Origin: an uncultured bacterium
Lineage (GTDB): Bacteria > Krumholzibacteriota > Krumholzibacteriia > Krumholzibacteriales > Krumholzibacteriaceae
NCBI GenBank assembly: GCA_965371515.1
Contig: CBDUYR010000006.1
Span: forward strand, 4,475-68,474
Direction: 5' to 3'
DNA length: 64,000 nt
This document shows positions 6,521 to 6,961 of the stretch, piece by piece. The notes under the pieces were generated by a model that was given only the letters and a program-made list of their open reading frames with translations, made no database searches and was not told the origin of the DNA. The position numbers were made by a program, and so were the translations under genes. Numbering within the stretch: the stretch's first letter is position 1; each line of letters begins with the position of its first letter.

Positions 6521-6625
6521 CGTAAATTTCTGTTTACATTCAGGTAACCTATCGTTTACATAATAACCATCAATTTATAAAGATGTTACGGGGATTCGCA
6601 AAATGTACGTAAAGAAACGTTTACA
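6521..6625 (+). promoter_or_regulatory. Three palindromic GTAAM-N6-TTTACA sites (putative enhancer/UAS)
   Basis: CGTAAAtttctgTTTACA 6521-6538, GGTAACctatcgTTTACA 6543-6560, CGTAAAgaaacgTTTACA 6608-6625. Confidence 0.65.
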
Positions 6626-6692
6626 TTTCTCATTTTCCGTTTCGCTCGAATCGTGCTGTTCGGCGAAAAATATAAATTTTTATCTCCTTATA

Positions 6693-6705
6693 ATACAATA
6701 AGTTA
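6693..6705 (+). promoter_or_regulatory. IHF-like binding site
   Basis: ATACAATAAGTTA resembles WATCAANNNNTTR, preceded by an AT tract, between the palindromes and the -24/-12 box. Confidence 0.4.
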
Positions 6706-6743
6706 AAACTTTTAAGGGAACGATGAGGAACAATAGGGAATTA

Positions 6744-6759
6744 TGGCACGTCACTGGCT
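6744..6759 (+). promoter_or_regulatory. Sigma54 (-24/-12) promoter
   Basis: TGGCACGtcacTGGCT; GG-N10-GC spacing, one mismatch to TGGCACG-N4-TTGCW. Confidence 0.7.
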
Positions 6760-6831
6760 ACTACAAGTAAGCGTGAGCAAGAACAATAAATACGAAGAAA
6801 GTTTTGGGAGTCTGAACGAAAGGGGTTGAAA

Positions 6832-6912
6832 ATGCTGCACTTCACAAGCATCGCGATGATCATAGCCCTTATGATCGCTGGCAAAAGTGTCTGGGGCAAG
6901 AGCGTCTGGTAA
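6832..6912 (+). CDS. 26-aa peptide MLHFTSIAMIIALMIAGKSVWGKSVW (not in ORF track)
   Basis: AAGGGG RBS 6 nt before ATG; hydrophobic N-half plus duplicated GKSVW with synonymous differences; own promoter and terminator. Confidence 0.7.
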   Translation: MLHFTSIAMIIALMIAGKSVWGKSVW

Positions 6913-6928
6913 ATCCCGGAGACTCCAC

Positions 6929-6961
6929 AAGGCGGGGCACGAAAGTGTCCCGCCTTTTTTT
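6929..6961 (+). terminator. Rho-independent terminator
   Basis: AAGGCGGGGCAC-GAAA-GTGTCCCGCCTT followed by a T run. Confidence 0.9.

Follow-up and report, generated by a model that had tools for sequence, protein, structure and literature searches.

A GKSVW-repeat micropeptide gene behind a predicted sigma-54 promoter, and its candidate GAF-type activator, in Krumholzibacteriota

Membrane micropeptides induced by a regulator are known from Escherichia coli, where MgrB, AcrZ, KdpF and MgtS are examples, and sarcolipin of muscle provides a structural analogue. MgrB-type micropeptides are often the strongest target of one signalling system; they bind a membrane protein and sometimes feed back on the sensor. 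Sigma-54 activators normally drive enzyme operons, surface structures or small RNAs (sRNAs). To our knowledge, genes for micropeptides as short as the one considered here are often missed by gene callers, and almost none are known from uncultivated phyla. This work describes a micropeptide gene in a stretch of 64,000 nucleotides from an uncultured bacterium of the Krumholzibacteriaceae (assembly GCA_965371515.1, contig CBDUYR010000006.1). The whole stretch is hereafter called the window, and positions are given in its coordinates. The gene encodes 26 residues that end in two GKSVW pentads, and it lies in a small transcription unit behind a predicted sigma-54 promoter. Its micropeptide family is new, and the dedicated circuit to which it seems to belong is unusual in being based on sigma-54 throughout.

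Like MgrB-type micropeptides, the peptide is shorter than 50 residues, with a single predicted hydrophobic helix, a short tail of conserved polar or aromatic residues and a conserved polar residue within the helix, here Asn. It differs from them in sequence (no match in Pfam, NCBIfam or PDB), in its tandem pentad tail of variable copy number and in its confinement to one uncultivated phylum. Control also differs: a sigma-54 promoter with enhancer-like sites is predicted here, whereas MgrB-type genes depend on two-component systems and sigma-70 promoters. Type I toxins such as TisB, Hok, Ibs and Fst share the small hydrophobic helix, the charged or aromatic end and tight repression until a signal arrives. 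Unlike these toxins, the present unit has no detected antisense RNA partner, appears to be activator-driven and is inherited vertically with stable synteny.

Among dedicated sigma-54 modules, PspF-pspA and NorR-norVW likewise combine an AAA+ enhancer-binding protein carrying an HTH_8 domain with several upstream palindromes. The LuxO-Qrr system shares this plan. Such modules have one or very few targets, as the present one seems to, and in two sister families of the present phylum the target stands beside the activator gene. The architecture of the candidate activator, a GAF domain followed by an AAA+ domain and a helix-turn-helix (HTH), is that of NifA and NorR, which are its best NCBIfam matches, although below threshold. 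The target sets the module apart, being the gene of a 26-residue peptide rather than an enzyme operon or an sRNA.

A third comparison is offered by the streptococcal short hydrophobic peptides (SHP) with their Rgg regulators and by the wgkA-D genes. In the accessible portion of the relevant study (PMC8092268), a very short and often unannotated precursor gene lies beside the gene of an activating cytoplasmic regulator, and the precursor contains W-G-K. The likeness to SHP/Rgg concerns the arrangement alone, as the regulator here is a sigma-54 AAA+ activator and no Rgg or RRNPP protein is involved. The WGK precursor belongs to the radical S-adenosylmethionine (SAM) group of peptides that are ribosomally synthesized and then post-translationally modified (RaS-RiPPs). 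Compared with what the same source portrays for it, the present locus lacks adjacent genes for a radical SAM enzyme, a RiPP recognition element (RRE) and a transporter, and its lineage is not Firmicutes.

Comparative genomics alone leads in this case to a testable circuit, composed of a GAF-AAA+-HTH sensor-activator, a three-copy DNA site, a sigma-54 promoter and a 26-residue product. The peptide appears to be the main, perhaps the only, target of the activator besides the activator itself, and a sigma-54 activator whose principal target is a micropeptide gene is unusual. The circuit could be rebuilt in E. coli, which would open a way into the signalling of a phylum without a cultured member. 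For bacterial small proteins, the combination of a hydrophobic helix with a variable number of Lys/Trp pentads defines a new sequence class. Should the peptide prove to be a signal, or else a partner that feeds back on the activator, the regulatory design would also be new.

The micropeptide gene and its family

The open reading frame (ORF) comprises 26 codons and a stop (6832..6912, + strand), from the ATG at 6832 to the TAA at 6910-6912, and its translation is MLHFTSIAMIIALMIAGKSVWGKSVW. Residues 2-16 are hydrophobic and are followed by the two GKSVW pentads (6880..6909, + strand). The pentad copies, at 6880-6894 and 6895-6909, differ at synonymous sites alone, namely at two third positions (AAA/AAG and AGT/AGC). 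A Shine-Dalgarno sequence, AAGGGGT (6820..6826, + strand; AAGGGG 6820-6825), precedes the ATG by 5-6 nt, and a GGAGG or GGGGG motif is kept at this place in all aligned units. Downstream, an intrinsic terminator (6929..6963, + strand) begins 16 nt after the stop codon; it consists of a 12-bp stem with eight G-C pairs and a 4-nt loop (stem-loop 6929-6956), then a T-run. Of 54 units, 39 have a hairpin with a T-run behind the stop codon; the stem sequences are unlike between relatives. The predicted unit as a whole is stand-alone, sigma-54-type and about 195 nt long.

The sequence-only reading of this locus had described a complete unit of -24/-12 box, ribosome-binding site, ORF and terminator, all of which are present at the coordinates it gave, and its statement that the two pentads differ only synonymously is borne out by the codons given above. 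As to its remark that the ORF track had missed the gene, the ORF is listed, from the in-frame TTG at 6826; the start that relatives conserve and that has the Shine-Dalgarno sequence is the ATG at 6832. The same reading had suggested selection at the protein level and had proposed looking for conservation of frame and peptide, for variation in repeat number and for rpoN in the genome. Each of these is found, as detailed below.

All six same-genus genomes match a 501-bp region containing the gene, with 74-83% identity over some 450 nt. Shorter matches, which span the promoter and the ORF, come from many other genera of the family. In every translated match the frame is open, the pentad tail is retained and the hydrophobic half is similar. 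Dozens of genera share the peptide, its frame, the promoter, the Shine-Dalgarno sequence and the upstream sites, a conservation beyond chance. Variable sites fall mostly at third codon positions, with counts for positions 1/2/3 of 10/5/21 among 26-residue peptides, 12/4/21 in the 27-residue class and 17/6/25 in the 29-residue class. The pairwise ratio of nonsynonymous to synonymous differences (pN/pS) is 0.18, and the last ten codons, which form the pentads, show a pS of 0.69 and a pN of 0.055. In the first pentad, G, K and W do not vary across 43 aligned peptides, and the corresponding residues of the second pentad are at least 90% conserved. Because of the third-position bias, the Shine-Dalgarno sequence kept within a variable leader and the lack of an Rfam match, the locus is, by its sequence signatures, a real coding gene for a translated micropeptide and not an sRNA.

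Repeat number varies from one to four pentads among 81 distinct peptides. Two pentads occur in 62 of them, three in 15, one in three and four in a single peptide. Pentad variants include GKAVW, GKSIW, GKTVW, GKGVW, TKSIW, NKSVW and GQSYW, and some members carry 1-3 additional residues after the last Trp, extensions that vary freely.

The distribution was assessed in 208 Krumholzibacteriota genomes assigned to coded families f1 to f9, of which f6 and f9 are two sister families outside the order of the window. These are metagenome-assembled genomes (MAGs), so that absences from incomplete ones are soft. A profile search (E<=1e-4) found peptide homologues in 75 of the 208 genomes, compared with 70 for an earlier, narrower profile. 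By family, the peptide occurs in 34 of 42 genomes of f1, the single genome of f2, all eight of f3, 20 of 23 of f6 and 11 of 13 of f9. At the same threshold it was found in none of 120 genomes of the other families (f4, 0/91; f5, 0/7; f7, 0/12; f8, 0/10). The titles of related contigs overwhelmingly read Candidatus Krumholzibacteriota. A hidden Markov model search of 1.84 billion representative proteins yielded 35 members, identical in build throughout, so unnamed predicted proteins of this family are already present in large protein collections. The ESM Atlas contains one family variant letter for letter, and otherwise gave no usable hit. The peptide family is found in Krumholzibacteriota alone.

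Curated resources contain no counterpart. The peptide matches no family in Pfam, NCBIfam, PHROGs or PADLOC and no PDB chain, and an Rfam scan of 5500-8000 gave only sub-threshold noise (the best match scored 20 bits, the gathering score being 36). No paper on the GKSVW motif or on a comparable pair of sigma-54 activator and micropeptide came up in text searches.

Two apparent members were rejected. A Planctomycetaceae contig (L118, ~3001-3054) has GKSVW about four times in tandem with the hydrophobic half absent, and its pentads may be a chance 15-nt tandem repeat or part of an unrelated protein. A hit in f4 (L075, E 0.0026) is an internal stretch of a 131-aa frame; it was judged spurious and disappears at the stricter threshold.

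Copy number varies between genomes. Two loci (L019, L021) have bicistronic tandem peptide ORFs behind a single promoter, and dispersed duplicates, two copies each, occur in L014/L015 and in L023. In two f9 loci (L063, L065), a second paralogue with a single pentad and its own sigma-54 box lies between the first copy and the activator gene.

Promoter, palindromes and the candidate activator

The putative sigma-54 promoter, TGGCACG-N4-TGGCT (TGGCACGTCACTGGCT; 6744..6759, + strand), has its GG at 6745-6746 and its GC at 6757-6758, with a predicted transcription start at about 6770. Compared with TGGCAC-N5-TTGCW, TGGCACGTCACTGGCT has one mismatch, TGGC for TTGC. The pattern TGGCAC-N5-YKGCW occurs once in the 64-kb window, at 6744-6759, against 0.17 occurrences expected from shuffles. 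By pattern, a -24/-12 box stands 72-128 nt 5' of the ATG in 47 of the 54 units, and many of these have a perfect TTGC. Two of the 47 are second ORFs of tandem pairs, with the promoter of the first ORF in common. Of the seven remaining units, six show by eye TGGCACG with a variant -12 element (TTGA or TCGC), partly masked by N in one of the six, and the seventh has 45 nt of upstream sequence in all. The + strand of 6200-7200 showed no sigma-70-like promoter. The genome encodes rpoN (PF04552 Sigma54_DBD, 214 bits, G000:C1:15594-16067, within a 471-aa open frame).

In an alignment of 26 promoter and leader sequences, the 5' leader is variable with indels apart from the Shine-Dalgarno sequence. 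The same alignment reveals a conserved promoter-proximal box, GGGAACGATGAGGAACAATAGGGAATTA (6716..6743, + strand), immediately 5' of the -24 element. This box contains two GGAAC-N-AT units and is kept across the order; it could be an extended promoter contact or the site of a bending protein.

Farther upstream lie three palindromes of the form GTAAA-N6-TTTAC, features without strand that are candidate enhancers or upstream activating sequences. Palindrome 1, GTAAATTTCTGTTTAC (6522..6537), lies about 310 nt before the ATG and is the top hit of its genome with a position weight matrix (PWM). Palindrome 2, GTAACCTATCGTTTAC (6544..6559), has one mismatch, follows site 1 by 22 bp and stands at about -288 from the ATG in relatives. 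Palindrome 3, GTAAAGAAACGTTTAC (6609..6624), is 65 bp from site 2, about 223 nt before the ATG and 135 bp 5' of the promoter, so that the three sites span 135-222 bp upstream of the -24/-12 element. These three copies (6522, 6544, 6609), picked out by a repeat finder, are the only ones in the window, against 0.37 expected. Palindrome positions are constant across the order, whereas the 6-nt spacers change freely. Of 50 assessable units, 40 have two or more palindromes with at most one mismatch, and 22 have three or more. This count omits the tandem second ORFs (L019:213, L021:579) and units with less than 340 nt upstream; L001 and L010 were omitted from the locus analyses (not peptide loci, or a duplicate of L002). 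Nine of the ten units short of two sites come from f6 or f9, and most of these have GTCAA-N6-TTGAC-type sites, with two mismatches, upstream. We know of no activator with GTAAA-N6-TTTAC as its recognised site. The layout, read from sequence, is that of a classical enhancer-dependent sigma-54 promoter. The ~400 bp of control DNA from which strong, signal-dependent expression had been supposed at first reading contain the three palindromes, which are conserved and enhancer-like, and a GAF-type activator can be put forward as the cognate protein.

This candidate emerged from the two sister families. In 10 of 11 fetched f6 or f9 loci, a gene with the domain order GAF-Sigma54_activat-AAA_lid-HTH_8 lies directly 3' of the peptide gene on the same strand; the eleventh locus is cut by a contig end. 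By coordinates, the two genes are adjacent in 29 of the 31 f6 and f9 genomes that have the peptide. The genome of the window contains one full-length orthologue (G000:C91:375-2054, minus strand), with 46% identity over residues 13-548. The best NCBIfam matches of the activator are sub-threshold (NifA, 393 against 529 bits; NorR, 377 against 476 bits). Because it falls below both curated cut-offs, the activator is neither NifA nor NorR. Orthologues (E<=1e-90) occur in 38 of 42 f1 genomes, the one f2 genome, all eight of f3, 20 of 23 of f6 and 12 of 13 of f9, and in none of 91 f4 or 10 f8 genomes. The distribution of the activator follows that of the peptide across the phylum.

Shared motifs provide a second connection between the two genes. 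The window's genome has nine exact palindromes, two at the peptide gene and two upstream of the C91 activator gene, where a sigma-54 box (TGGCACATGACTTGCG) is also present. In a genome-wide scan with a PWM built from 106 sites in relatives, the top hits fall at the peptide gene (three sites) and at the activator gene (four), and the rest are single sites. Clustered palindromes mark the peptide and activator loci only. The sites at the activator gene are spaced 20 and 70 bp apart, then about 110 bp from the box, compared with 22, 65 and 135 bp at the peptide gene, and a fourth palindrome lies downstream of the box. This arrangement is kept in all four same-genus relatives examined. In a few other genera, palindromes and sigma-54-like boxes lie 400-750 nt upstream of the activator gene. 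Five other genomes contain 11, 9, 4, 7 and 4 exact palindromes, against 3, 1, 2, 3 and 3 for a reversed-pattern control, and clusters occur at the peptide loci only, plus the activator locus in the same-genus genome G006. From these patterns we infer that the GAF activator binds the palindromes, with the peptide gene as its principal target and with autoregulation at least in the window's genus.

Several further features were noted around these sites. Divergent from the GAF activator gene is a second sigma-54 activator gene (L120, G000:C91, 2960-5419, + strand), whose 819-aa product has a long N-terminal region of tetratricopeptide repeats (TPR); the palindrome-rich intergenic region is common to both genes. 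In other genera (L128, L129, L130, L131), a leader of 400-550 nt precedes the activator gene behind the sigma-54-like boxes and palindromes. A 13-mer, GAGTTAGATTCTC, is common to the activator leaders of two genera. The leader has no Rfam match and may be structured or may contain another small gene. Two PilX_N paralogues (L119, G000:C3:69000-80000; 3879-5168 and 5617-6885, - strand) each have one exact palindrome and a sigma-54-like box. They were considered as co-regulated targets and set aside, as their orthologues in five other genomes are not beside exact palindromes.

Nature of the peptide and rival explanations

The N-terminal part of the peptide is strongly hydrophobic, with a mean Kyte-Doolittle hydropathy of 2.16 for the 16 residues before the first pentad (81 distinct peptides). 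This half is uncharged in the window's peptide and in most of the order, and Lys is confined to the tail. Asn at position 6 (8 in longer forms) is kept in most members and is replaced by Ser in the window genome's peptide. A Sec-type n-region and an AXA site are absent: the residue before the first Gly is one of A, F, Y, M, L, I, V and T, and position -3 is variable. AlphaFold2 models a 33-residue variant as a single helix (residues 3-31) at a modest predicted local distance difference test score (pLDDT 74.6). Because of the hydropathy, the uncharged N-terminal half, the lack of a Sec or AXA signature and the predicted helix, the peptide is read as probably membrane-inserted. The reading favoured here, with moderate confidence, is that such a micropeptide would be the main output of a GAF-sensor/sigma-54 circuit.

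According to this proposal, the GAF-AAA+-Fis-type HTH enhancer-binding protein encoded on C91 most likely drives the unit and would bind the three palindromes. A signal received by the GAF domain would lead the activator to turn on RpoN-RNA polymerase both at its own gene and at that of the peptide. The peptide would then insert in the cytoplasmic membrane by way of its N-terminal 16-19 residues, which are hydrophobic and uncharged. Its Lys/Trp pentad tail (1-4 copies) would lie at the interface of membrane and water, and the positive-inside rule makes the cytoplasmic side the probable one. The peptide might act as output by binding a membrane protein or by altering a membrane property. In all of this, DNA binding by the activator, membrane insertion, topology and the molecular target are inferred from sequence.

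Several observations weigh against this picture. With 16-19 residues, the hydrophobic stretch is short for spanning a membrane, and no RNA sequencing run containing the locus sequence was found. Linkage, co-occurrence and shared motifs are the grounds for assigning the activator, and weaker GAF-activator matches (36-45% identity) occur in four of seven f5 and eight of 12 f7 genomes, families in which no peptide was found. Upstream of the activator gene, 11 of 16 other genera have no palindrome (at most one mismatch) within 800 nt, and autoregulation is for this reason not universal. Positive feedback and a C-terminus with repeated Trp would suit a signal precursor just as well. A complex prediction for the activator of genome G007 with its 33-residue peptide returned a score of 0.00, which is no answer and no evidence either way.

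The signal precursor is the foremost alternative, although an unlikely one. The precursor would be exported and processed, and its Trp-containing tail or single pentads would be sensed, directly or indirectly, by the GAF activator, which would then raise the output of the precursor and of itself in a sigma-54 quorum-sensing-like loop. Adjacency of the two genes in 29 of 31 f6 and f9 genomes suits this idea, as do a clustered-site regulon made up of these two genes alone, an activator that appears to drive both the peptide gene and itself as in autoinduction circuits, and the 1-4 pentads, which recall multi-core precursors. Hydrophobic precursors beside a cytoplasmic receptor are also known from streptococci (Rgg/SHP by wgkA, in the available part of PMC8092268). 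Yet no exporter, protease or oligopeptide importer is conserved nearby in 50 loci, a Sec-type signal and an AXA site are missing, the residue before the first Gly varies, and extensions past the last Trp vary freely. A circuit whose multi-site targets are signal and receptor alone would, in addition, have no visible output genes. Its more specific form, a two-gene self-amplifying module in which a trimmed Lys/Trp pentad product is sensed through the GAF domain at a dose set by repeat number, is judged just as unlikely. If true, it would be a Krumholzibacteriota-specific, quorum-sensing-like circuit of a kind undescribed for sigma-54 or outside the Gram-positive RRNPP group. Ranked next, and improbable, is a membrane-damaging peptide made in a burst, be it a type I toxin, a holin-like dormancy or suicide factor or a leaderless bacteriocin-like weapon. 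Its size, hydrophobic helix and cationic Trp-rich end resemble those of small membrane toxins, tight sigma-54 on/off control with a strong terminator suggests burst expression, and some genomes have tandem or duplicate copies. No conserved antisense RNA or immunity gene was seen, however. An antisense sigma-70-like match inside the ORF (6884-6856) is within chance, with a total of two in the region against 1.6 expected. PADLOC and PHROGs gave no match, and chromosomal, single-locus, vertical inheritance with stable synteny across the order is atypical for toxin or bacteriocin cassettes.

A RiPP precursor is very improbable by comparison. Here an unlinked enzyme, for instance a radical SAM enzyme as for tryglysin or streptide, would cross-link or otherwise modify the Trp and Lys of W-G-K or K-x-x-W. 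The W-G-K/K-x-x-W spacing of the peptide differs from the KxxxW motif. The first pentad has invariant G, K and W, the second keeps them almost as strictly (at least 90%), and the tail contains W-G-K, after which the streptococcal WGK RaS-RiPP precursor is named (PMC8092268, accessible portion). In the RaS-RiPP operons covered there, precursor, radical SAM enzyme, RRE and transporter stand together (PMC8092268). Here, none of radical SAM enzyme, RRE or transporter is conserved within about 3 kb in 50 loci, although an unlinked maturase was not searched for. The sole nearby radical-SAM-like ORF encodes a spore-photoproduct-lyase-family protein 3.6 kb downstream. The putative leader is a membrane-like hydrophobic helix rather than a recognition sequence, and in some variants Q or N stands for K, and T, I or N for G. 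Lower again in rank is a regulatory leader peptide, in which translation of a Trp-rich ORF would control terminator read-through into menA in the order of the window, or into the activator gene in the sister families. The ORF stops 16 nt before the terminator stem, a same-strand gene follows in most loci, and 2-4 Trp codons fall in a very short ORF. Purifying selection nevertheless covers the whole peptide beyond its Trp codons, no alternative antiterminator pairing is evident, the distance from stop to hairpin varies, clades differ in the downstream gene, and tandem second copies with their own Shine-Dalgarno sequence would make no sense for an attenuator. The least credible option, with hardly any probability, is an sRNA whose ORF is incidental and whose transcript base-pairs like the sigma-54-dependent Qrr RNAs. 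Size and architecture (sigma-54 promoter, ~195 nt, terminator) are sRNA-like, several copies exist in some genomes, and LuxO with sigma-54 drives Qrr1-5 (10.1101/2021.07.01.450815, available part). Third-position bias with a pN/pS of 0.18, the Shine-Dalgarno sequence and ATG kept downstream of an untranslated leader that varies with indels, amino-acid motifs that survive saturated synonymous change (pentad pS 0.69) and the lack of an Rfam match above threshold all argue against it.

The membrane-inserted micropeptide, which the sequence-only reading had named as an alternative, fits better than the secreted signal or RiPP precursor that it had preferred. The latter finds no support in gene context, as 50 loci show no conserved maturase, exporter or peptidase within about 3 kb. 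Secretion is also poorly matched by an N-terminal half without a Sec-type n-region or AXA site and by residues past the last Trp that vary freely.

Gene neighbourhood

Around the peptide gene, the window contains glnA', gatE- and gatD-like genes, a MOP flippase gene and a methyltransferase gene, followed by the peptide gene itself, menA and a LOG-family gene. Farther on are genes for an alcohol dehydrogenase (ADH), a rhomboid protein, the spore-photoproduct-lyase-family radical SAM protein, an LVIVD protein and DsbD. Across 50 loci, the conserved neighbours are only the MOP flippase, MenA, ADH and the GAF activator. They include within about 3 kb no RiPP-type enzyme and no exporter, protease or importer.

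The downstream neighbour, menA of the UbiA family (7034..7939, + strand), passes TIGR00751 (118 bits against a cut-off of 102) and is probably not part of the system. Of 39 loci of the order, 27 have menA next to the peptide gene, as against none of 11 in the sister families. The upstream flippase is similarly conserved (25 loci). In f6 and f9, the nearest MenA-like gene lies 50 kb to 1.8 Mb away in three genomes and was not found with the query in two. Four further UbiA paralogues exist in the window genome. A functional link between menA and the peptide was considered and rejected: the flippase is similarly kept and menA is unlinked or not found in f6 and f9, so that the adjacency is read as synteny inherited at the level of the order.

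Between the MOP flippase gene and the enhancer-like sites lies a class I methyltransferase gene (5636-6361, - strand) with 35-39% G+C, compared with 55-63% in its flanks. In same-genus relatives, the end of the flippase gene directly abuts the enhancer region, with no methyltransferase between. The methyltransferase gene looks like a recent insertion, because the flippase directly precedes the enhancer region in those relatives.

Upstream of the flippase, two adjacent genes (657-3983, + strand) encode a GatE-like protein of 638 aa with GatB_N and a 464-aa protein with GatD_N and asparaginase domains. A GatD-like gene is also found upstream of the flippase in relatives (L011). The GatDE-type Glu-tRNA(Gln) amidotransferase, which we take to be archaeal, occurs here in a bacterial MAG.

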